A stretch of 61,379 bases of DNA, counting the filler, from Globobulimina sp. (lineage: Eukaryota): NCBI GenBank assembly GCA_003354225.1. It is 14 parts of 14 records of this genome, joined end to end, with 100 filler letters (N's around TTAATTAATTAA, not from the genome) between each part and the next. Parts side by side here need not be neighbours in the genome. Positions count along the whole stretch, not along the records: positions 17,603 to 21,897 come from PIVH01001376.1; positions 21,998 to 26,292 come from PIVH01001377.1; 12 more parts are not named here. The stretch is one strand, 5' to 3'. Position 1 is the stretch's first letter, and every line of letters starts with the position of its first letter. Below are positions 4,303 through 52,709 of the stretch, in pieces. The position numbers and the translations under genes were made by a program. Below the pieces are notes generated by a model, which was given only the letters and a program-made list of their open reading frames with translations, searched no databases and was not told the origin of the DNA.

Positions 4303-4402
4303 NNNNNNNNNNNNNNNNNNNNNNNNNNNNNNNNNNNNNNNNNNNNTTAATTAATTAANNNNNNNNNNNNNNNNNNNNNNNNNNNNNNNNNNNNNNNNNN
4401 NN
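4303..4402. other. Artificial contig-joining spacer (first of 13)
   Basis: 44 N + TTAATTAATTAA (stops in all six frames) + 44 N. Identical spacers start at 4303, 8704, 13104, 17503, 21898, 26293, 30683, 35069, 39455, 43840, 48225, 52610 and 56995. Contig lengths never increase along the window (4302 down to 4285). Confidence 0.99.
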
Positions 4403-8703: not shown

Positions 8704-8976
8704 NNNNNNNNNNNNNNNNNNNNNNNNNNNNNNNNNNNNNNNNNNNNTTAATTAATTAANNNNNNNNNNNNNNNNNNNNNNNNNNNNNNNNNNNNNNNNN
8801 NNNTATTTTATTGGCTTCAAAATTGAGGAATTTAATCTTGGATTTGCAACTCGATGGACATTATGTTAATTATTCATATATGGAAAACATTGAATTGTAT
8901 CTATCGCACAAATGACGCAACAACAAATTGTTATAATTGTTCTATGCACGAACGTTGACTCACTGTTGCTACCCGT

Positions 8977-21386: not shown

Positions 21387-22008
21387 TTTGAGCAAAGTAC
21401 ATCTCGTAATTATTTTTTATACTCTTTTCATTGTTATTATGTTTTCGATCAATCTCTCGGGTTTTTTAAGTTATAATTTTAGATATATCTAGTTATAATT
21501 TGTTACTCTTTCTTTTTTCTCAGGTGAGAAAAAGGTATTTTATTTTTTTATTAGTATTTGCGCGAATTCAAAAGAATTTGTACATTTACAAATAAAAGCA
21601 TGTTTGTGTTTGTATTATTTTTTGTTTGTAATTGTGATGTTTTGTCTTATTACGTATAATTGTGATGATTCATGTTGACATTTACTCATAATTTTAGCTG
21701 TGTTTATTGTTTAATATTTGTTTCGATTCCAATTGAATTTGTAAAATATGTTATTATATATTTTTTATATATATTTTTTTGTTGACAATGAAAGTAAAAA
21801 CCAATCGGAGGAATATAGATATGTTCAGAGATGATAAATGCAGATCGGACTTTCTAGTACTTGCGAACAAAAGGATTTATTTAAACAATGATTTTTTNNN
21901 NNNNNNNNNNNNNNNNNNNNNNNNNNNNNNNNNNNNNNNNNTTAATTAATTAANNNNNNNNNNNNNNNNNNNNNNNNNNNNNNNNNNNNNNNNNNNNTTC
22001 AATTAAAA

Positions 22009-22050
22009 CACTTTGACAATGGCTACTTTACGTTAGCCGAAAGCTCAGTG
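22009..22050 (+). ncRNA. Minimal type I hammerhead ribozyme (U3-A8 core variant)
   Basis: CACT [TTGACAA] T GGCTA-ctttacgt-TAGCC [GAAA] GC [TC] AGTG. Stem I CACT/AGTG, stem II GGCTA/TAGCC, vestigial palindromic stem III (AGCT), predicted UH cleavage after C22046. Lies 76 nt before the PLE ATG. Confidence 0.82.
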
Positions 22051-22126
22051 ATCAAACAAACAATAGACTCAACTAATTCGTACTATAAACTACTTTATAC
22101 TTTTTACAATTAAATTTAAGTCCTTT

Positions 22127-25100
22127 ATGGATAAAACGTGCAGAATTAGGACCAACCGATTTGGTTTTCACGTGCGATCGTTCACAAATGTATTTCTTCG
22201 AAATGGTGTCCGGATCATGCAGTCATGTACGAAATCCAATTTTAGAGCGCTGCCTCATCGGTCGACAATATCATCATTTATTCGTTTACATTCAGCCGAA
22301 AATATCACAAATTACAATTTTAAATTAAAACATCAAGGAACGTACTTTAGGGCAAGTATGCATTTTGACAGTGAAGTATGGCAATTTTATAAATTATACA
22401 GAGATTTAGGTCGCAAAGTGCTACGCAAAGCACATCACATCGATTATTATAATATCTGTTTACTGCATTATAGAGATCCATGGAAATTAGAATCGAAGAT
22501 TAAAGAGCAAGTTATTACAACGATTAGATCACAAAAATCGCACAGTGCGATATTGCGACGGTGCAGTAACCAGTTAATAAAAAAGGATAAGGCGGCTTTG
22601 CGGGACCAAATTGTGGTAAATATCAAACAAATGAAATTATTATGGAGTAATTTAACAGCAATTGCCTCAAAAACGACATTAAATCATTTAGCAAACGTTG
22701 CGGAATTACAAATGTTTCATGAATATGTAAGAATTGATCGTTTAGTCAAAAGTCGTATGTATACGATTTTTAATTTTGGACCAGACACTTTTTGGGAGCA
22801 TTGGCGAATTAACAGACGTTTAAAGGGCACAATGAGTTGCAATTACAGTGAGAGAGGGAGTACATTTACGTGGGTCAACAGCGTGAATGCAAATGATCTG
22901 AATTATAATTCGGGGATTTTAGATAGAACAAAGACTTCAGAATCAACCGCATTTAGCTTCGACAGTGAAGAAAAAGAATACATTTTAGGTAATATCGAAG
23001 AGACAGCGGGTTGTGAGGAAGTAACAGTGTGTAACAGAGAGAAAAATGAAATTACGGCGAGCACAGAAAGGGCACCAGACAGTTTAGACAATTTTAGTAA
23101 CGATGAAAGCGAAAATAAGGTGTATCGCTTACAACGTATTTTTCAACAATTTAAGAAAAAGAGAGCGTGGAAGAAGGGATACAAAAAGAAAGAAATTACG
23201 CATTTTGCAGCACATAAAAGTAAATTAAATCGACGGAGAAACAAAATTAATGCCAACAGACAGTGTGCGAATTTGCGTAGAAAATGTAAGATCATTTTAA
23301 AAGAGGAGGCATTGAAAGTCGCTCCAATGCAAAAACTACCAAAAACCGACGAAAACATAAAAATTGCGCCGGGTTTCGAAAAATTAGTCGCTCGCAGTAG
23401 AAATTACGTAGTTAACCCGAAATATTTCGATTTTAATAATATGTTTACGGGTATTTTCAATCTGAAAAATAGCGTCAGATCGTGGTATAATAATATTTAT
23501 AATAATTATACTAAAAAGAAAAACGATGAAAACGAGAAAAACGAGGAAAAGGAAGAGAAGAAAGAGCAGAAAGTGCAAGATGACGGAGATTGGGTTGATT
23601 GGAAGCCGTATTTAGTAAACACAAAAGAGCGCAGATATCATTGTCAAAGCACAGGCAACGTAAAATTAGAAGCGTTTTTACATGATTTTGAGAAGGATTT
23701 ATATGAAAAATGCCTGCAAAATCAACGAAATATACAATATAAAACAAATTTAGATGACGACGAAGAAGAAGCGTACATGGACTGCATTGACGAAAATCAA
23801 AAATTCGACGATAAAAACAGGAAAGTGATGGTAAAGGAGGATAAGGGCTCATTATATATGGTGACAACGGCGGAGGTATTAAATAATTTGGTTTTAGATA
23901 CTTTGCCAAAATTAGGTTTTGAGGCCGTGCCAGAATATGATTGGGAGCAAGAAATTGAAATTCTGACACAATTGTTGTCGAAATGGGTGGATTTCGGAGA
24001 GTTAAAAGAGGATTGGTTTGAAGCGTTGCAACCCAAATTCCCGACGAAATTCCATTATCGCAATGCGAATTTGTATGCGCTATGGAAGACACATAAAAAA
24101 GTGCCATCATTACGGCTAATTTCATCATTTTCAGGCACGTTTTGGGAGGCAACTGACAAATTTTTAGATTATGTGATAACTCCGATTTGGAAACACGAGC
24201 TGGAAAAAGGATTTTTATTGAAAGACACAAAGGATTTGGTGACGCGCGTAATAAATTTCAATGAAAATAAATCGATACAATGGCATATTAGAAATAGAAA
24301 GGATTTTATAGTTTGGTCCTTCGACGTTGTTAAACTATATCCATCGATTGAGCACGATTACGGATTAAGAGAAATGAGTAAAAAATTAGATGAATACAGC
24401 TATTTATTACCAGCCCACCCCTCAAAAGAGTGTATTTTAGACATTTTAAACGAGGCACTAAGGAGAGGCGTAGTGGTATGGAATAAGAATCATTTCATCA
24501 AAACGAGAGGATGCGGAATGGGAAGAAGTTGGGCGTGCAGATATGCAGATTTATGCCTTGTTAATTATGACACATTATTACGAGATAGCGATTGGGTGCA
24601 AAGTAAGTCCGCATTGGAAGTATTAATGGATGGCAGATTTAGAGACGATTTATTTGGAGCAGGATGTGGAGATATATTTGATTTAAAATGCTTGCTTTCG
24701 GGCATGAATATTATCAATAAATCACTACAATTTACATTGGATTATGACTATGCGGATAGAGATGTGGATAAAAACGGGAAATATCTCGAAATTCTGGACA
24801 CAAAATTCATCGTAAAACGTAAATTAAAACGATTTGATGACATTGAATTTATGGGTTGGGATATTACGGTCGATGTACATTCAAAAGAGACAGATACACA
24901 CTGCACATTAGAAAATAATTCGTGCCACGTTAGCCATCAAAAAAGAGGGACGATATCATCGACGGCATTGAGGATTAGAAGTATTTGCGATGATGAATAC
25001 ATTGAGAATCAATTAAGAAATTATAAATGTTTTCTAATTGCGAGAAACCACGAAGTGTGGCAAGTTAACAATATTTTCAACAAATTTAGCAAATTAACAA

Positions 25101-26221
25101 AAAAGCAGGCATTGAAAATATGGAAACAGCCGTATTTTGTAAGAAAAAGAAGAAAACAGAAATATTTTGCAAATTTAGAGTCGAAAGAAGAGGAAAAAGA
25201 GACTGAGAATGAAATGGAATTAAAACATATTACATCATTGGTAAAAGACAAACGTTTTTGGTTTGTTGTGAAATATCATAACAACATCCCAAACATCTAC
25301 GAAATCCTAAAACTAGCATATAATAAATGGATAGCCGATGATTCGAAGCTAGCGGCAATTTTTCCATTGGAAAAGTTCAAAATTAGCTATAAATGCTATA
25401 ATAAATTGGACCAAACAATATCGCCGAATACGTTTAGATTGGATTTGGAAGAAAAAGAGTCGGATTTAATGGATGATAATTTGATAAATTTCTGTAATGT
25501 CGGCAAAGTTGTCATTATTGATAACAATAAGATAAATTTGGAGAATTTGGAAAGTTGGAAAGGATTTATATGCTGCAAAGACTTAAATAAATTAAATATT
25601 ACGAAAGGAAGAGAAGATTGTCAATGTTGCAAATATCCCGACATTATGAACAATGCAAAAAAATGGAAATCAACAATAACGGGACAATCAATAAAAATAA
25701 ACAGATCGTCATGTTTTTCACGTGACATAATCTATGTAATTGACTGTAAAAATTGTGGGAAATCATATTTTGGCAAATGTGGAAAGGGAAAAACAGGGAA
25801 ACGGCAATTTAAGACAAGAACGAGAGAGCATACGGGCGATATTCAGAAAGTATACAAATTATTAATGCAAAACAATTATTATGATGAATCGGGAAAAATT
25901 AATAACAACATTGGGATTTTGGCATTAATTTTGAAATCAATCAAGAAAGAATACACTGGCGAAGTCCTACACTTTTTGGGATTGGACGGTACAAAATGTT
26001 ACCTCCAAAACAAGGGCAATCCATTATTTTTGATGAGAACGTGCGTTATAAAGCAGCTAAAGGGAGAGAATCGATTCGTAGTCGAAGCAAAATTGTGTAG
26101 AGAGGAGATTTTTTACCAAACGCAATTCTGTGCGATTACGCATGGAATGAACAGTGGAAAGGATGCAAATAATAGGGTGATAAGAAAAAAAAAAAGCACC
26201 AGTGTAATAGCACCAGTGTAA
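22127..26221 (+). CDS. PLE polyprotein: reverse transcriptase + Zn-finger linker + GIY-YIG endonuclease
   Basis: K.HK...LRLI; FDVVKLYPSI (motif A); GCGMG...ADL (B); RFRDD (C); ILD; HSKETD and SCH...K....ALRIRSIC thumb; IIYVIDCKNCGKSYFG; R..EH; E.FY...HGMN. Confidence 0.94.
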   Translation: MDKTCRIRTNRFGFHVRSFTNVFLRNGVRIMQSCTKSNFRALPHRSTISSFIRLHSAENITNYNFKLKHQGTYFRASMHFDSEVWQFYKLYRDLGRKVLRKAHHIDYYNICLLHYRDPWKLESKIKEQVITTIRSQKSHSAILRRCSNQLIKKDKAALRDQIVVNIKQMKLLWSNLTAIASKTTLNHLANVAELQMFHEYVRIDRLVKSRMYTIFNFGPDTFWEHWRINRRLKGTMSCNYSERGSTFTWVNSVNANDLNYNSGILDRTKTSESTAFSFDSEEKEYILGNIEETAGCEEVTVCNREKNEITASTERAPDSLDNFSNDESENKVYRLQRIFQQFKKKRAWKKGYKKKEITHFAAHKSKLNRRRNKINANRQCANLRRKCKIILKEEALKVAPMQKLPKTDENIKIAPGFEKLVARSRNYVVNPKYFDFNNMFTGIFNLKNSVRSWYNNIYNNYTKKKNDENEKNEEKEEKKEQKVQDDGDWVDWKPYLVNTKERRYHCQSTGNVKLEAFLHDFEKDLYEKCLQNQRNIQYKTNLDDDEEEAYMDCIDENQKFDDKNRKVMVKEDKGSLYMVTTAEVLNNLVLDTLPKLGFEAVPEYDWEQEIEILTQLLSKWVDFGELKEDWFEALQPKFPTKFHYRNANLYALWKTHKKVPSLRLISSFSGTFWEATDKFLDYVITPIWKHELEKGFLLKDTKDLVTRVINFNENKSIQWHIRNRKDFIVWSFDVVKLYPSIEHDYGLREMSKKLDEYSYLLPAHPSKECILDILNEALRRGVVVWNKNHFIKTRGCGMGRSWACRYADLCLVNYDTLLRDSDWVQSKSALEVLMDGRFRDDLFGAGCGDIFDLKCLLSGMNIINKSLQFTLDYDYADRDVDKNGKYLEILDTKFIVKRKLKRFDDIEFMGWDITVDVHSKETDTHCTLENNSCHVSHQKRGTISSTALRIRSICDDEYIENQLRNYKCFLIARNHEVWQVNNIFNKFSKLTKKQALKIWKQPYFVRKRRKQKYFANLESKEEEKETENEMELKHITSLVKDKRFWFVVKYHNNIPNIYEILKLAYNKWIADDSKLAAIFPLEKFKISYKCYNKLDQTISPNTFRLDLEEKESDLMDDNLINFCNVGKVVIIDNNKINLENLESWKGFICCKDLNKLNITKGREDCQCCKYPDIMNNAKKWKSTITGQSIKINRSSCFSRDIIYVIDCKNCGKSYFGKCGKGKTGKRQFKTRTREHTGDIQKVYKLLMQNNYYDESGKINNNIGILALILKSIKKEYTGEVLHFLGLDGTKCYLQNKGNPLFLMRTCVIKQLKGENRFVVEAKLCREEIFYQTQFCAITHGMNSGKDANNRVIRKKKSTSVIAPV

Positions 26222-26292
26222 GTCTTCAATATAAAATGTACATTTCTATTCGCCATTTTACACTGGTGATTTTATATTGGTGCTTTATATTG
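26196..26292. repeat. 14-bp repeat units (GCACCARTRTAA) in converging orientations at the PLE 3' end
   Basis: GCACCAGTGTAA at 26196 and 26210; inverted TTACACTGGTG at 26258-26268, followed by TTTTATATTGGTGC and TTTATATTG. Confidence 0.8.
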
Positions 26293-26392
26293 NNNNNNNN
26301 NNNNNNNNNNNNNNNNNNNNNNNNNNNNNNNNNNNNTTAATTAATTAANNNNNNNNNNNNNNNNNNNNNNNNNNNNNNNNNNNNNNNNNNNN

Positions 26393-26776
26393 TGAAAAAT
26401 AGATTTTCGTTTTAAAAGTTAATAATTCCTTAGTTGAGCTATACTCTCTTTTTACAATGGTAGAATCTGCAATATTTCTATTTACCAATGTTTCGATTAG
26501 CTCATTGTTGTTGGCAGTAAACCTTAATGAACCAAAGGTAATTCTATCATCATCAGGATTATAACTAAATTGAATTAACGTAGATCTGCTGCCAATCACA
26601 ACAGGCAGCTCCTTAAATTTAATCGTTTTATTTTTTGTAGATTTTGTAACAGTTTTCTCAATAAAAGAAGTTCCATCCTTAAAAACAGTTACTCTTTTAT
26701 GCTTAAAACCGCCTTGAGCATAGGAGATAGCAGAAATACTAATACAAAGTGATAAAATAAATAGTTTCGTTTTCAT
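26393..26776 (-). CDS. Bacterial (Bacteroidota-like) secreted protein, DUF4140-like N-terminus (3'-partial)
   Basis: Bacterial-type signal peptide MKTKLFILSLCISISAISYAQ followed by RVTVFKDGTSFIEK. Confidence 0.6.
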
Positions 26777-26949
26777 TCGTTTTGGTGTTTGTTAGTGATT
26801 TACTAATAATTAAGATGATGCTAAAGTTTTTCATTTTCCATAAAAATACTATTAAAGATAGGTAAATCTGTTACGCACACAAAAAACTAACACTAAAACC
26901 TAGGGCAATTGGGTTTAGAATTTAATTCATTTTCACCCCTAAATCCCCT

Positions 26950-26957
26950 TATCTTTG
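26950..26957 (+). promoter_or_regulatory. Bacteroidota -7 promoter element (TAnnTTTG)
   Basis: TATCTTTG(CGC) lies upstream of a short ORF start (ATG 27104, MESQTFKISKRATEL), next to a Bacteroidota-like gene. Confidence 0.5.
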
Positions 26958-27159
26958 CGCCATATGGCTTACGCCTGATTTTGCCATTTCCTATTACTCT
27001 GGCGACAGCTAAGTTCCCCATTTGGGGGAAATAAGGGGTAATCAAAAGTTTAAACCCGATTGCCCTGCACTAAAACCGACATTGTGATTGAAACAATAGA
27101 AAAATGGAATCACAAACCTTTAAAATCAGTAAACGTGCCACGGAGCTTTAATTAATTGC

Positions 27160-28839
27160 ATGAGTGAATTAACAAGTGATATTGGTAAATTGCCGCCTGC
27201 TTTAGAGACTGTTAATGAACCAAACAATAATATAAATACTATGAAGTATGCGGATGAAGTGATGTTAGCCACCAACACACAAACACCCATTACAATCGAT
27301 ATAAATCATAGTCACAATAATGATGATGATGATGATGATGAATATTATGAGGATGATAAAGCGCGGCAATCTATAGATTTATTACAAGAGGAACTATCCC
27401 CTTCTTTCGCATCTCCAGCTCCATCTGCCTCGATATGGAGTTGTTTAACGTGTGGCTGTTGTGACAGCAACCAGACAAACATGAAAGTGGTCGGTCAGGA
27501 GTTGGCAGATAGAGATAAAAAGGAAGAAGAGGAAGAGGAGGAAGAAGAAGCTGGATTTGCCTTAGATATGGATGATTGGAAGACATTTAAATCGGGCGCC
27601 TCGCGTATTCGTCGCCCCACGGCCTATACCACGGTGACTAACAATGAAGATTCCACCATCAATTCATCCGATGTCCGAATGTGGCAAGATCCGTTTGGTA
27701 AAGGTGCGTCTGGCCGCGTCTTCAAAGGCATCTATTTGCCGTTATGCCAGGTGATGGCATTAAAAGTGACTTCGCGTCTCGACAATGATAATGTGAAACA
27801 GATATTGGGTGAATACAAGCAACAACAGGAGTTCTTACCGGATTGTGATGAGTTGATGCGGATCCATGGTTGGTATCGAAATTTATGCACCAATGAGATT
27901 GCGGTGGCCTTGGAATATATGGATATGGGATCCATTTATGACTCGGTCTTCCACCATAACCATGGCAATGGCAATGGCAATAAGAGTGATAAAGCGAGCG
28001 GTGATAAATCAGTGGAAGAACAGATAAAAACGGGGCATAAACAAATAATAATCGATAAATTATCGTACGATGAGTTGCGATTTATAGGCAGACAGTCGTT
28101 ATTAGGCTTACATGCGTTGCATAGCAATGCGCCGCCGCTGATCCACCGCGATATTAAGCCGCAAAATATCTTGTTATCGTCGTTTGGCGTGGTCAAAGTG
28201 GCCGATTTTGGGCTGTTGATAGAATTGGGCGATTCTGGCGTGTGCTCGGATGGTAAAGGCACGTCAAAGTACTTTAGTCCGGAACGGATCCAGGGTTCTT
28301 TTGATTGTTCGTCGGATATCTGGTCGTTGGGCATTACATTGATTGAGATCTATAAACAAGAATTAATTTCAGCAGAAGATTTAGATTGGTTTAAAATCGT
28401 GGAAGATGGCATAGATATTTATGATTTTTTGCCGGCAACGACGCCAACCGAGTTTTTAGATTTTTTAAAGCAATGTTTATCGCACGAATCGGTGGATAGG
28501 CCATCGGCCAAACAATTGTTGTCGCATCAATTTATAACTCGTAAATGGGGGCATCCATTGGATGGCGATCTAGACAGTGGCAGCAATAGCATCAGTAACA
28601 ATATTTCCATTCAGTTTTCAAAAGAAGAGGGAAATCAAAAATTATTGGACAAAATATTGGGTTGGTTGGAAGAATGGATATTATCCGATGAAGAAAATAA
28701 TGGCAAATTATTCTTGGAGGGAGACTCTGAATATTTAAAACAATGTGTTTTTAATTTGTCAAAATATTCTGGTTTATCTGCACGTTATATTGACAAATAT
28801 ATTGCTGATTTATACAGAGAATACACTCAATTTGAATAA
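27160..28839 (+). CDS. MAP kinase kinase (STE7-like) protein kinase
   Basis: GKGASGRV, ALK, ALEYMDMGS, HRDIKPQN, DFG, GTSKYFSPERI and SDIWSLG motifs; acidic N-terminus with a Cys cluster. Confidence 0.9.
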   Translation: MSELTSDIGKLPPALETVNEPNNNINTMKYADEVMLATNTQTPITIDINHSHNNDDDDDDEYYEDDKARQSIDLLQEELSPSFASPAPSASIWSCLTCGCCDSNQTNMKVVGQELADRDKKEEEEEEEEEAGFALDMDDWKTFKSGASRIRRPTAYTTVTNNEDSTINSSDVRMWQDPFGKGASGRVFKGIYLPLCQVMALKVTSRLDNDNVKQILGEYKQQQEFLPDCDELMRIHGWYRNLCTNEIAVALEYMDMGSIYDSVFHHNHGNGNGNKSDKASGDKSVEEQIKTGHKQIIIDKLSYDELRFIGRQSLLGLHALHSNAPPLIHRDIKPQNILLSSFGVVKVADFGLLIELGDSGVCSDGKGTSKYFSPERIQGSFDCSSDIWSLGITLIEIYKQELISAEDLDWFKIVEDGIDIYDFLPATTPTEFLDFLKQCLSHESVDRPSAKQLLSHQFITRKWGHPLDGDLDSGSNSISNNISIQFSKEEGNQKLLDKILGWLEEWILSDEENNGKLFLEGDSEYLKQCVFNLSKYSGLSARYIDKYIADLYREYTQFE

Positions 28840-48324: not shown

Positions 48325-49212
48325 AGCATCATTGAACTCAATATCAAGACCGTTATTGTCAAGATTAATTTCATACTTTTTGCCACCTTTTACGCCACGA
48401 TCCATGTCAGCTATAATTTCGCTTAAAATCACTTCCCATTTATAGACCTGGGAAGCCACAACGATTTCAGGTGCAAGTTCAGTCTGATTTGCCTGCGTTC
48501 CAAACCAGGCAACTCTTTTGGCTCTGGCAGCACCTATAGCCCCTACAACCATCTGAGCAGTTCCTGTGAGCACGTCTGCACCGGCAGCCATATGAGCGCG
48601 TGCGGCTTCTGCGGCAAGTGCCACATCACTGAATGATCCAATATAATTCACTTTTGCTCTGATATTTGCTTTTTGAGCCTTGGCACCTTTTACAAACCCA
48701 TCAACATACAATTTTGCATCGCCCACCTCGATGGGTCCGACAACACCAACACCGCCCTTTTTACTCATCGCTGCAGCCATAACGCCCATGACATAGCCAC
48801 CTTCATCAGATGCTGCTTCATAGGAAGAAACATTGGGAAGGCCAAAGGTATCCGCAGAAGTACCCCAGGCAAAGGCAGTGTCTGGAAAATCCGGAGCAAT
48901 TTCTTTTAAGGATCCACCGTATTGCGACCCGTGAGCCAGGACAAGATCAAAGCCTTTTTTGGCATAATCGCGGATGGCTGCTGCTGCATCTTCAACAACA
49001 AAGGTCCCGTCTGTTATGGCCAATTCTATTTCACGACCCTTTTGAATCGCTTTTATTCCGTCAACAATACTTTGGGTAAACGCCAGATCATTTTGAGCAC
49101 TGGGAGCAATGATTGCTACCCGTAACATCTTTTCGGATGCTAGAAGTGATGATGGAATAAGTATAACAAGAGCTAAAAAAGCAGCGGTTAAACAGCGGTT
49201 AAACTTTTTCAT
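48325..49212 (-). CDS. BMP-family ABC transporter substrate-binding protein (purine/nucleoside type; 3'-partial)
   Basis: D..F.QS, AIRDYA..GFDLV.AHG, IAPDFPD..F, EGGY.MG, YIGSF.D and GADV motifs; AGGAG RBS. Confidence 0.93.
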
Positions 49213-49266
49213 TGTAAAAATCTCCTTTAAAAATTATTAATGGCGGTAAATAAAATATTGCTAAAT

Positions 49267-50199
49267 TTACCCCCCTCGAATATATGGTTTTGTTAATGCC
49301 GATGGTTGTTTGAAGCGTTTTGCTACCACAACAAGGGCTAATACGGTAATAATGGCCGGTGCCATCGCAGCAAGATCAGACGCACTGCGTGGGATAACCC
49401 CAAACGTCTTGCACTGCAGGACAATTGCCTGAACCAGACCGAAAACAAGAGAACCTATCATTACACCTTTAGGGCTCCATGCACCAAAATACACAAGCGC
49501 AATTGCGATAAACCCCATAGCATTCGTCAAATTTTGTTGAAAAATTCCCAGCTCAATTGCAAGTGCAGCACCCGCAAAACCCGCTAGTCCATTACCGATT
49601 ATTATGGCTGAATACCTGGTGGCCATCACGCTGACGCCGAGGCTGTCTGCTGCTTCAGGATTTTCTCCAATGGCACGAATATTCAAACCATAGGTTGTAT
49701 GATAAAGTATAAAACTCATAATTGGAACCAGAGCAAAGGCAATATAGACAACGATGGAGTGCTGGAATAGCATTTCACCGACAATCGGTAAATTTGACAA
49801 AACTGGAATGTCGATTGGCATAAAGGGAAAAATAGGCTTGGGAGTTCCAACAAATTTTTGAAAGAGCAGATCACTCATACCCAGACCAAACAGGTAAATA
49901 CCAATACCACTGACGCCTTGCTGTGCATGTAAGTTGAGTGTAATAAAAGCGTAGAGCAATCCAACAATCAACCCTATACCAATACCCATCAGCAAACCAA
50001 AGAAAAGGCTATTTGTTTGTAATACAGTGTAGTAGGCACTAAAGGCACCCAATAGCATAACGCCATCAACACCAAGATTAAGGACACCACTTCTTTGTCC
50101 CAGTGCTTCTCCCAGTGAGGCGAGTAGAAAGGGTGTTGCCAGCCGAATACCTGAAGCAATCGTTGCAACAATGATCATCAGTGCAAATGAATCAAGCAT
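49267..50199 (-). CDS. ABC transporter permease (nucleoside/sugar family, subunit 2)
   Basis: LATP.LLASLGE...RSGVLNLG.DG.ML and IRAIGENPEAADSLGVSV motifs. GGAGGAG RBS; ATG overlaps the end of the upstream gene. Confidence 0.95.
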   Translation of the reverse strand: MLDSFALMIIVATIASGIRLATPFLLASLGEALGQRSGVLNLGVDGVMLLGAFSAYYTVLQTNSLFFGLLMGIGIGLIVGLLYAFITLNLHAQQGVSGIGIYLFGLGMSDLLFQKFVGTPKPIFPFMPIDIPVLSNLPIVGEMLFQHSIVVYIAFALVPIMSFILYHTTYGLNIRAIGENPEAADSLGVSVMATRYSAIIIGNGLAGFAGAALAIELGIFQQNLTNAMGFIAIALVYFGAWSPKGVMIGSLVFGLVQAIVLQCKTFGVIPRSASDLAAMAPAIITVLALVVVAKRFKQPSALTKPYIRGG

Positions 50200-51319
50200 T
50201 GTCTCCTCCTTCATGCTCACTTTTTTCTATTACCTCTGGTAGGTCAACCCTACCGGTTTGCAGTGAACGCTGTTTAAAATATTCCGAGCTGACAACAAAG
50301 ATTACAATCAAACCGTTCAAAGCGATAATCAAGGCGGATGGAACCTGAGCGGCTCTCTGCAGGGCATTGGCACCCACCAACATCCCACCAAAAAGAAGTG
50401 CCGAGGGAATTGACCAGAGGGGATGCAGGCCTGCAAGTAAGGCAACAACAATACCATTGAATCCGGCACTGCCGGTAAAACCAGTGCTGCTACCGTCCGT
50501 CACCATCCGATGAGATTCGCTTCCGAAAACCAGTATGGCTCCAGCAATACCAGCCATAGCGCCGCTAAAGGCAAGGGCTGATGTAACATTTTTCGGTACG
50601 GATATACCCGCATAACGGGATGCATCAGGATTATGGCCTACAGATCTCAGACGAAAGCCCATTGAGGTTCTCCATAAAAGAAAATACGCGCCAACGGCCA
50701 CAAACAAGGCAATAACAACACCCAGGTGCATTCGCATTCCTTCCAACAGAATCGGCATATCCGCATTTTCAGAAAGGCGCATTGTTTGGGGAATACCTGT
50801 TCCTCTTTCTATTTCACCTGGATCAATCATAGGGCCACGCAGCAAAAAATTCATAAACTGCACAGCGACTATATTGAGCATAATTGTGCTTAATATCTCA
50901 CTGACATTAAAGTAAGCTTTCAATGACCCGGCAATTGCCCCCCAAAATGCGCCACCAACGGCTCCTGCCATTAATACCATGGGGATCAGCATTAAGGATG
51001 GTAAACCAGGAAAGGTAAGGGCGACTGCTGTTGCCAATAAAGCACCTACCACCATCTGGCCCTCTCCCCCGATATTGATAACATTTGCCCTAAAAGCAAT
51101 ACAGATCCCAACCCCAACCATAAGCAAAGGGATGGATTTGACTGTGGTTTCAGAAAATCCTTCAAGACTTCCAAAAGCTGCACCAAACATAGTTGCATAG
51201 CCGCTCAATGGATTTGCACCCAAAGAGAGCAACATGACTGCACCGATTATCAATGCTAGAAAAATGGCGCATAAAGGAATGATTATGCTGACAAATGATT
51301 TTGCTTGTATTTTTTTCAC
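50192..51319 (-). CDS. ABC transporter permease (nucleoside/sugar family, subunit 1)
   Basis: AFRA...NIGGEGQ, VSEILSTIMLN, GF.LR.VG.NPDASRYAGI and GFNGIVVALL motifs; GTG start. Confidence 0.95.
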   Translation of the reverse strand: MKKIQAKSFVSIIIPLCAIFLALIIGAVMLLSLGANPLSGYATMFGAAFGSLEGFSETTVKSIPLLMVGVGICIAFRANVINIGGEGQMVVGALLATAVALTFPGLPSLMLIPMVLMAGAVGGAFWGAIAGSLKAYFNVSEILSTIMLNIVAVQFMNFLLRGPMIDPGEIERGTGIPQTMRLSENADMPILLEGMRMHLGVVIALFVAVGAYFLLWRTSMGFRLRSVGHNPDASRYAGISVPKNVTSALAFSGAMAGIAGAILVFGSESHRMVTDGSSTGFTGSAGFNGIVVALLAGLHPLWSIPSALLFGGMLVGANALQRAAQVPSALIIALNGLIVIFVVSSEYFKQRSLQTGRVDLPEVIEKSEHEGGDNA

Positions 51320-51578
51320 TTAATACCTGAACAAATAATGGAGAGAATTATGGTAACGATCTTTCTCTCGCTGGTTTATTTTATGAACCGAGAATATTCC
51401 CAAAACACCTTTACCAGTAAAATAGTTAAATAGAACTTGATCTTTGTCAAGGAAAAAAAAATAATTTAAAACACTATTCAAATTATTTAGCACTACTTTA
51501 AATTTATTTGAAATCTTTAACATATCTCTCCATAAATGACATATCAATTATGATCATATTTAGGGATCGTTAAAAAAT

Positions 51579-51670
51579 AACTTCACATAATTTGTCTGCA
51601 AAAGTCCCAAAGGGACTGGACATTTTCCATACAAAATGTGAACTAAGGCAATGCGCAGCTTTGCCCCTAA
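51579..51670. repeat. Intergenic cluster of short palindromes (REP-like or terminator)
   Basis: AGTCCC-AAA-GGGACT (51603-51617), ACATTTT..AAAATGT and GGCAA..TTGCC, with an outer TTCACA..TGTGAA pair; lies just downstream of the regulator. Confidence 0.45.
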
Positions 51671-51713
51671 CTAATTTTAGAGCCGACCCTTAGATGGTCA
51701 ATACGTCTATTTA

Positions 51714-52403
51714 TTAAATGACATCTCGTATACTTGTCCCATTTGCGGCTCTGATCTTTTTCAAATAATTATAAATCGTAAAATTGGAAACCCCAAGTCG
51801 AAGGGCCACCTGGTTGACAACCCCTCTAATTTGAAATGCACCTTTCTGTTCTAAAATCCTGACTAATCTTACTTTTTCATCCGTATTCATTGAAGCCGGC
51901 CGCTTACCGATTTGGTCGACTGATTGTTCAAAAATTGAATCAACTGTATGATCAATAGAAAAAGACATCTTTTCAGGGCGTTCTTCAGTGCTGCCTCCTG
52001 TGGCGTGACCATTCACCCCTTTATTTATAAACGCTTGAAGAAACTGGATGGCATTATGATGATCCGTTGTATTAAAATTGATACAAAAGGCGGCAACAAC
52101 ATCCCCGTTGCTATCCCGGATATAGCTTGTGGAAGATTTCAATTCACGACCATCATCGGTCAATGTTTTAAAACAATGCCTGTCTTTGGCCAAATTTCCA
52201 TCCTGGATCAGATACTTAGCAACGACATCGGTCACGGGTGCACCTGGTTTTCGCCTAGTGACATTCCCGGTTATATGTAACAGCTGCATATGCTCTGTGG
52301 TTAAATCATGAATCGCGACCTCACAATTATCTCCGAACATCTGTGTCATCAACCCGGCCAGTTGTTTCAGCGTTTCAAATATCTGCTCTTGTTCAGTTGG
52401 CAT
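51714..52403 (-). CDS. YheO-like PAS + HTH transcriptional regulator (DauR/YheO family)
   Basis: FG.NCEVAIHDL, VTRRKPGAP.TD, GRELKSST, FCINF and EK...V..LE.KGAF..RG.V..VA..LGVS.FTIYNYL motifs. Confidence 0.94.
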   Translation of the reverse strand: MPTEQEQIFETLKQLAGLMTQMFGDNCEVAIHDLTTEHMQLLHITGNVTRRKPGAPVTDVVAKYLIQDGNLAKDRHCFKTLTDDGRELKSSTSYIRDSNGDVVAAFCINFNTTDHHNAIQFLQAFINKGVNGHATGGSTEERPEKMSFSIDHTVDSIFEQSVDQIGKRPASMNTDEKVRLVRILEQKGAFQIRGVVNQVALRLGVSNFTIYNYLKKIRAANGTSIRDVI

Positions 52404-52709
52404 ACTTGCTTTTCCTTTTTGAGTCTAAATTCACCCTAAAATTTCATTAAACTATTTAAACCAATTCGGATTTAGTTATTCAATTTTTAATCTGTTTCTA
52501 CACTTTTTTCAACTGCCTTTAAAATATGCTGATATCCAGTGCACCTGCACAAATTCCCTGCATGGGCTTTTCTAATATCTCCTTCACTCACTTTTTCACC
52601 CTTGCATTTNNNNNNNNNNNNNNNNNNNNNNNNNNNNNNNNNNNNNNNNNNNNTTAATTAATTAANNNNNNNNNNNNNNNNNNNNNNNNNNNNNNNNNNN
52701 NNNNNNNNN

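Follow-up and report, generated by a model that had tools for sequence, protein, structure and literature searches.

A divergent Penelope-like element with a C-terminal GIY-YIG endonuclease domain in a Globobulimina assembly: a probable foraminiferal lineage and a copy without its native 3′ end

According to the text of Craig et al. (2021; PMC8557442), Penelope-like elements (PLEs) that carry a C-terminal endonuclease (EN) are restricted to animals and, through one transfer, conifers, and protists carry either Chlamys elements (N-terminal EN) or EN-minus PLEs. One contig of the Globobulimina sp. assembly GCA_003354225.1 encodes a PLE-type reverse transcriptase (RT) followed by a GIY-YIG EN. 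What is this element, and whose DNA is it? The contig occupies positions 21998-26292 of the window, i.e. the whole stretch of 61,379 bases that was analysed. The window consists of 14 unrelated contigs (4302 to 4285 bp), sorted by length, with artificial spacers between them, each made of TTAATTAATTAA flanked on both sides by 44 N (4303-4402, 8704-8803, etc.); inferences on gene order or neighbourhood across the spacers are therefore void. The limits 21998-26292, which a previous sequence-only reading gave for the element, are simply those of one whole contig of 4295 bp. In all likelihood, this contig is one PLE copy with the canonical domain order, belonging to a deep and distinct lineage that includes foraminifera; its catalytic residues are kept and its native 3′ end is lost.

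The contig contains a single open reading frame (ORF) encoding a protein of 1364 aa (P0001; Table 1). As the sequence-only reading claimed, it has no internal stop. With a GC content of 34%, we estimate that chance alone would bring a stop about once in 14 codons, so that 1364 open codons are far beyond chance. All the PLE RT motifs of that reading, including FRDD, were located and are homologous to canonical PLE domains: DKG (aa 572-574), LWKTHKK (652-658), motif A SFDVVKLYPSI (731-741, Asp D733), motif B GCGMG (795-799) and motif C GRFRDD (836-841). A thumb-like block (HSKETDTHC, SCHVSH and ALRIRSIC, corresponding to KxTDxH, SCH and R..RIC) is found at aa 918-954. The spacing between motifs A and B is 63 in P0001 and 60 (median) among 51 canonical rows; being close to canonical, it indicates that P0001 has no insertion-in-fingers domain (IFD). 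The core elements of the EN are IIYVIDCKNC (1201-1210), SYFGK, RTREH, VLHF, CREEIF and HGMN (1339-1342). Residues R1231, H1235, H1282, E1326/1327 and N1342 align with the conserved R, H, H, E and N. The PLE-type CCHH is present: its Cys are C1207 and C1210, located between IIY and YFG, and its His are H1235 and H1282. As judged by alignment, P0001 retains every catalytic residue, i.e. Y, CxxC, Y/G, R, H, H, E and N of the EN, the Asp of RT motif A and the DD of motif C.

Homology was established by comparison of profiles. Residues 560-1364 were used as a phmmer query against 1.84e9 representatives; 937 matches had E<=1e-3, 141 had E<=1e-10 and 14 had E<=1e-30, and 150 matches were listed. Among 38 of these 150 scanned with Pfam, RVT_1 and/or GIY-YIG was found in 13 of 24 canonical proteins and in none of the 14 proteins of the family of P0001. 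Where a canonical match had both domains, GIY-YIG was located C-terminal of the RT (6 out of 6). Three profiles were used: A1 (12 family sequences), A3 (40 canonical matches) and A2 (mixed, dominated by canonical PLEs). The profile-profile alignment of A1 with A3 (hhalign) has a probability of 100% and an E-value of 2.4e-82 over 618 collinear columns. The collinearity covers the 'NL..E..A'/DKG block, the RT, the thumb, the 'KYHPN.P' block, the linker and the GIY-YIG domain as far as HF. A canonical-only EN profile (59 non-family matches) hits aa 1161-1266 (i-E 2.2e-16), in agreement with the proposed C-terminal GIY-YIG with an internal CxxC. In the PDB, the mixed profile A2 matches the catalytic domain of I-TevI (2.5e-6) and group II intron-like RTs (1e-4). 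Word-index homology searches with the ORF part and with the family alignment A4 gave no match even though the collection contains family members, and their silence was not read as absence. By profile homology, P0001 and the canonical PLEs that bear a C-terminal GIY-YIG are homologous end to end, and the motifs of P0001 are not due to chance.

The family of P0001 includes two proteins of the foraminifer Bolivina argentea (P0002, P0008), the full-length or long members P0152 (1261 aa), P0006 (1675 aa), P0046 (a fragment of 1452 aa) and P0138 (1132 aa), and various fragments. Among the matches listed, the close relatives share 30-80% identity and most are fragments on short contigs. Five marks characterize the family: a long RT-EN spacer, a W.GF..C...CxC linker, a gain of 6 aa after YIG, another of at least 31 aa separating the two His of CCHH and, usually, a C-terminal tail. 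The spacer extends over 365 aa from RT motif C to GIY in P0001 versus about 260 in canonical matches. The Cys-bearing linker, already seen in the sequence-only reading, is C-X14-CxCC in P0001 and W.GF..C-X14-17-CxC in the family consensus, and not the standard CX2-5CxxC carried by 61 of the 76 canonical tree rows that have an EN. The CQCC of P0001 contains a CxxC, but the preceding Cys is 14 residues upstream, and the other family members have CxC only. The first EN insert lies between YIG and the conserved Arg. The second, between the EH and HF motifs, results from a spacing of 46 aa in P0001 (46-85 in the family) versus a median of 15 in canonical PLEs (n=32, quartiles 14-17.75); it was announced as ~50 aa and amounts to a net ~31 aa. 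It is left as an unaligned block in the hhalign comparison with canonical PLEs, and every family member that could be measured (n=10) has both inserts. Most members run 100-250 aa or more past the EN, with a tail that starts with a conserved G-x-F-S/T-R-D motif. Cys/His-rich modules are present in the tails of P0006 (aa ~1560-1640) and P0046 (~800-880) and between the RT and the EN of P0138 (~790-900). Their pattern (C..GH ... C..C ... YHC ... C..C.) resembles ZZ-type zinc fingers; Pfam names none of the modules of P0006 or P0138.

The composition of the family members varies strongly: some have N-rich low-complexity tails, and P0006 and P0046 are A/R/G-rich. These differences suggest that the family is spread over several hosts. 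The contig of at least one relative comes from a marine metagenome-assembled genome (MAG). The GC-rich P0046 has a GenBank entry (NRA57988.1) that assigns it to the MAG of a Phycisphaerales bacterium, with a contig of 4459 bp as its source; the binning is probably wrong, and the contig would be transposon DNA of a eukaryote.

The RT phylogeny asked for by the sequence-only reading gave a clade of its own, in trees that carry no labelled PLE clades. Of the 152 stored proteins, 141 match the local RT profile, and the 105 that cover at least 85% of its 325 positions were used in a quick tree. In this tree, P0001 and P0002 group together (98*) and are joined by P0152 and P0006 (83) and by P0138; a branch supported at 99* splits these five rows from the other 100. 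A more careful IQ-TREE analysis included 56 rows and 318 columns: six family rows (P0004, with 82% coverage, was added), 15 of the 18 rows of group g18 and 35 of the 82 rows of group g82. The long rows P0106 and P0122 are among those omitted from this run. The family of six has a support of 100/98, is found in 100% of 200 bootstrap trees and lies outside the 50 canonical rows. Its core without P0138 has a support of 99/92; g82 has 100/100, and g18 forms a grade beside the family. Both trees are unrooted and have no outgroup. The RT of P0001 shares 50% identity with P0002, 33% with P0152, 31% with P0006 and 28-30% with the best canonical rows. In these trees, the family is not nested among its nearest canonical relatives, and the branch is apparently very divergent and undescribed.

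The closest known type in layout is Neptune/Nematis (Arkhipova 2006, via PMC8557442). As described there, these elements share with P0001 a single ORF with collinear N-terminal motifs, DKG, RT, thumb, 'KYHPN.P' block, linker and GIY-YIG, a CxxC between GIY and YIG, two His (CCHH) and the absence of an IFD. P0001 differs from them by its probably foraminiferal rather than animal host, its separate RT clade, its W.GF..C-X14-17-CxC linker, 6 and at least 31 extra residues at two places in the EN, ~100 aa more between motif C and GIY, an N-terminal extension of ~535 aa and the lack of a hammerhead ribozyme (HHR) in the contig. Other family members further differ by their C-terminal tail, which in some carries Cys/His-rich modules. 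Could P0001, called Neptune-like in the sequence-only reading, nevertheless be an ordinary, fast-evolving member of the Neptune group rather than a separate lineage? Craig et al. assign the CX2-5CxxC linker to Neptune/Nematis, which makes the 61 of 76 EN-bearing rows with this linker, and the CxxC within the CQCC of P0001, compatible with such a placement. Neptune is paraphyletic and weakly supported in their published tree, and the family attaches beside the g18 grade, which includes a coral protein. This placement is nonetheless unlikely, given the monophyly of the family outside 50 (IQ-TREE) and 100 (quick tree) canonical rows, an RT identity of just 28-30% to these rows, a consensus linker in which the motif is CxC and the first Cys is displaced, and the two family-wide EN inserts together with the longer RT-EN spacer. 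Pfam, moreover, is silent on P0001 and on 14 of 14 family proteins, yet matches 13 of 24 canonical ones. A bolder proposal, in which the family is a new major clade of marine-protist PLEs whose GIY-YIG is C-terminal and which branches as sister to, or outside, every animal clade with a C-terminal EN, is put forward tentatively, being somewhat less likely to hold than to fail.

Other PLE groups were compared from their descriptions in PMC8557442. The Hydra clade (cnidarians and other aquatic invertebrates) resembles P0001 in having a C-terminal GIY-YIG, no IFD, a divergent linker that contains CxC and a highly divergent RT. Its elements are without CCHH, have DKT instead of DKG, are shorter than 3 kb and carry canonical HHRs, whereas P0001 has both CCHH and DKG, a 4.1-kb ORF and no HHR in its contig; the presence of both CCHH and DKG rules out membership. 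Naiad and Chlamys share with P0001 a PLE RT, a CxC motif (but placed elsewhere) and, for Chlamys, a presence in protists. They have an N-terminal EN and an IFD in the RT, and Chlamys is without CCHH and without the linker zinc finger; the C-terminal EN and the A-B spacing of 63 (no IFD) rule out this assignment. The ENs associated with Athena terminons in rotifers resemble that of P0001 by GIY-YIG, PLE-type Cys motifs and large lineage-specific insertions. Athena RTs, compared by description only, are otherwise EN-minus, telomere-associated and rotifer-specific. Membership of the EN-minus PLEs (Athena, Coprina) is ruled out by an EN that has all the conserved residues. No report of PLEs in Foraminifera or Rhizaria was found in full-text literature searches, which did not cover Repbase; the papers in which both terms occur deal with unrelated matters, and the text and one supplement file of Craig et al. 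do not mention foraminifera or Rhizaria. The PLE with a canonical layout is thus already known; as far as the sequences indicate, what is new is the host group and a separate, structurally marked lineage.

Two sets of comparisons bear on the source of the DNA. The closest relatives of P0001 among the matches listed are P0002 (45% identity) and P0008 (54%), both EukProt proteins of Bolivina argentea; this EukProt data set is presumably transcriptome-derived. On another contig of the window, a MAP-kinase-kinase-like ORF (27160-28836) has its best matches, at 59-68%, among EukProt, MMETSP, JGI and ENA proteins, and also matches three Reticulomyxa filosa proteins (54%, 51% and 42%). Since the best matches of this ORF are foraminiferal, the AT-rich eukaryote of the window is a foraminifer other than R. 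filosa. The Bolivina relatives and the foraminiferal kinase contig make an animal source unlikely. Members of the family are therefore placed in foraminifera, i.e. in Bolivina argentea and, very probably, in the foraminifer from which the window derives. Between the two origins left open by the sequence-only reading, a new protist lineage and co-sampled animal DNA, the Bolivina relatives, the kinase contig and the separate RT clade favour the former.

The contig could still come from a co-sampled animal or another non-foraminiferal eukaryote, as prey or contaminant. The assembly also contains co-sampled bacteria and is thus mixed, as shown by at least one bacterial contig in the window (48325-52609; 42.5% GC; two adjacent BPD_transp_2 ABC permease genes). 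The family is found in only one of three runs of the sample, PLEs with a C-terminal EN are otherwise reported from animals in the text of PMC8557442, and Atlas look-alike clusters are animal (Porifera, Mollusca, Arthropoda). Such a source is quite improbable in view of the Bolivina argentea entries, which are the closest relatives among the matches listed (45-54% identity). Outside the family, the sole neighbour with an organism name is P0022, a protein of the coral Montipora, which has ~30% RT identity and belongs to a different clade. Composition also points to the foraminifer: the tetranucleotide correlation of the element contig is 0.83-0.94 with the ten AT-rich contigs of the window and 0.74-0.78 with the three GC-richer ones. 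Finally, the relatives P0007 and P0008 bear N-rich low-complexity tails, which are typical of AT-rich protist genomes. No viral contig carrying the element was found, and a virus-borne origin is unsupported. No RNA sequencing set containing the element contig was listed.

In favour of a foraminiferal transposon, the element is multi-copy, with diverged copies in one sequencing run. This run (X1) yielded 210 Logan contigs that match the element stretch with at least 80% identity; 32 of them reach 99% or more, 27 fall at 95-99%, 30 at 90-95% and 121 below 90%. The differences are transition-rich, and up to eight contigs show the alternative letter at one site. Summed depth rises along the ORF, from ~10 in the 5′ part to 40-70 in the 3′ part; this would fit 5′-truncated copies but was not used, as summed word or contig depths are a hint only and are unfit for ranking parts of the gene. 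A metagenome scan with the family alignment A6 found only L001 and two canonical PLE loci of 27% identity. L001 (2261 bp) is a decayed paralogue: it has 72% nucleotide identity over 1108 bp, covers aa 364-754 in two frames separated by a frameshift, and then ends. The two other loci, L002 (MOXG01000768.1) and L003 (MOXH01000819.1), encode canonical-type PLE RTs with 27% identity to P0001; the frame of L003 is split into short ORFs. Over 251 ungapped codons, P0001 and L001 have a pN of 0.152, a pS of 0.669 and a dN/dS of about 0.10, with saturated dS. The lineages of P0001 and L001 therefore diverged under constraint at the protein level, as expected of transposon subfamilies that were once active.

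The same values invite another explanation, that P0001 has been domesticated, having started as a PLE and become an immobile host gene in single copy. A long intact ORF, a dN/dS of about 0.1 with respect to the paralogue and the modest depth (7-10) of the exact-match pieces would all be expected of such a gene. The low dN/dS is equally expected between active transposon subfamilies. The many diverged copies in one run, the frameshifted and truncated paralogue, the several divergent subfamilies on short repeat-broken contigs and the conserved catalytic residues of the EN make domestication extremely improbable, and P0001 is best regarded as the product of a transposon copy.

The state of this copy is shown by its ends. 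Four X1 contigs diverge from the element contig after position 26174 (codon 1349/1350, seven residues past the GMN of the EN); their consensus translates to TGTFSRDFTK, i.e. the tail motif of the family (cf. P0007). The element contig enters a foldback instead (Table 1), in which a 14-nt unit (AGCACCAGTGTAAT) has two copies in direct and two to three in inverted orientation. The hairpin of this foldback has a free energy of -37.4 kcal/mol (z -6.7), and the foldback provides the last eight codons and the stop of the ORF. The summed depth in X1 is 440 in bin 26174-26292, with a joint from 26292 back to 26255 at depth 518; at the other end, it is 367 in bin 21998-22141 versus ~2-14 in bins 22286-23293. 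The foldback may be a small repeat of the foldback or miniature inverted-repeat transposable element (MITE) type, or a satellite of the host. Nothing beyond 7-nt words is shared by the two high-copy ends of the contig, where a pseudo-long terminal repeat (pLTR) would lead to expect similarity, and neither end recurs in the other 13 contigs of the window or in L001-L003. This copy thus lacks the C-terminal tail of the family and its native 3′ end. Canonical PLE proteins stop just past the GLN motif, so that all the canonical domains are nevertheless complete in P0001. The element had been called intact and potentially active. The catalytic residues are present, as this requires; the C-terminal tail, the 3′ end of its own and visible termini are missing, and both ends of the contig are high-copy. 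As predicted from its sequence, this copy may still make an active protein, but its copying in cis is unlikely.

Several results weigh against the reading of this contig as one PLE copy of a distinct foraminiferal lineage. In P0001, Pfam detects neither RVT_1 nor GIY-YIG at E<=1, and a sequence search of the PDB gave no match with the ORF or the family-only profile. The RT and EN domains were therefore identified by transitive homology, with canonical PLEs as the intermediate; where Pfam and PDB find nothing, motifs alone are weak evidence and homology is decisive. The exact X1 pieces cover 22549-23070, 23361-23787, 24727-25375 and 25433-25828, and no single Logan contig spans the element contig, which could thus be a mosaic of paralogues. 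No terminal repeat, pLTR, target-site duplication or tail was seen in the contig, where the ORF is preceded by 129 nt and followed by 71 nt only. No HHR or other Rfam family was found at E<1 in the 4295 bp, the native 3′ end and the pLTR (the usual HHR site) being outside the contig; the Rfam matches obtained are at chance level (E 3.5-8.2). In the tree, P0138 is a long branch, and 'outside known clades' applies only with respect to the nearest library matches included, i.e. 100 rows in the quick tree and 50 in IQ-TREE. Lastly, of the three runs from one sample, X1 contains 0.90 of the words of the contig plus relatives, and X2 and X3 contain almost none. The carrier of the element may therefore be unequally present across libraries, and its linkage to the foraminiferal nuclear genome is putative.

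The mobility of the element would follow the scheme proposed for other PLEs. By homology with PLEs that have been studied, the protein would bind its own RNA. The GIY-YIG domain would nick chromosomal DNA and free a 3′-OH (PMC8557442 and PMC11167929). The RT would extend this 3′-OH by target-primed reverse transcription, with an internal start near the 3′ end of the RNA; according to PMC11167929, reverse transcription by the Anolis PLE, the one PLE reconstituted in vitro, starts at such an internal position near the 3′ end of the element RNA. A second nick would then lead to a target-site duplication.

Table 1. Features of the element contig. Positions are those of the window; aa, residues of P0001.
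Feature	Position	Strand	Characteristics
5′ leader	21998..22126	+	129 nt; in-frame stop at 22034-22036; first ~144 nt of the contig high-copy in run X1
Single uninterrupted ORF, 1364 aa (P0001)	22127..26221	+	PLE-type RT and C-terminal GIY-YIG endonuclease
N-terminal region, aa 1-360	22127..23206	+	Lineage-specific; weak collinear similarity to the N-terminus of P0006
K/R-rich basic block, KEEALKVAP and G/S-x-x-F/Y-V..P motif, aa 363-455	23213..23491	+	Kept in full-length relatives
First block collinear with canonical PLEs, aa 538-580	23738..23866	+	'NL..E..A' and DKG (EDKGSL 571-576); hhalign start at aa 538
RT core and thumb-like region, aa 636-997	24032..25117	+	Positions 2-325 of the 325 of the local RT profile matched
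Cys linker, aa 1144-1169	25556..25633	+	WKGFICC 1144-1150, X14, CQCC 1165-1168
GIY-YIG endonuclease, aa 1194-1342	25706..26152	+	CxxC between GIY and YIG
Family-specific EN insert between EH and HF motifs	25832..25969	+	46-aa spacing, net ~31 aa
3′ segment unlike the normal continuation of the family	26175..26292	+	GGGTGATAAG; 11-A run (26185-26195); high-copy foldback (26193-26286)

Upstream of the first PLE-conserved block, P0001 has ~535 aa, in line with the long N-terminal region (~500 aa) noticed previously. Pfam gives no match for aa 1-360; aa 97-326 are collinear with P0006 (BLASTP E 1.1; MAFFT columns 100-230), and DUF8422 clusters of the Atlas (0.92) are a lead only, not a family assignment. 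The basic block (aa 363-455) is better conserved, with BLASTP E-values of 2e-8 to P0152 and 4e-7 to P0006. An antisense ORF of 239 aa (23511-24230), opposite a K/E-rich coding stretch, is unsupported and was judged spurious.

The other contigs of the window are mixed. Most are AT-rich and eukaryotic, with kinase, UBA, RING/ubiquitin, START, Kelch and haem peroxidase domains; no further PLE fragment was found in these 13 contigs. The start of the next contig (26393-27160) has an ORF on the minus strand (listed at 26345-26776), which encodes a lipoprotein-like signal peptide (MKTKLFILSLCISISAISYAQ) of a type that we take to be that of Bacteroidota. It is followed by a stretch of ~230 nt whose ends resemble inverted copies (about 26882-27075) and, from 27160, by the foraminifer-type kinase. 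This contig could be chimeric or correspond to bacterial-derived DNA beside a host gene.

If the element is resident in foraminifera, the distribution of PLEs with a C-terminal EN would be widened to Rhizaria. The family would then provide a new data point on when and how often a GIY-YIG nuclease was fused to a telomerase-like RT, and natural variants of the EN and of the linker for the study of target choice by PLEs. If it does form a new clade, the RT-then-EN fusion with a CCHH endonuclease would not be an animal invention: it would either predate the split between Rhizaria and animals or have moved anciently between them. The EN inserts, the altered zinc linker and the Cys/His-rich tails would then define a different target choice.

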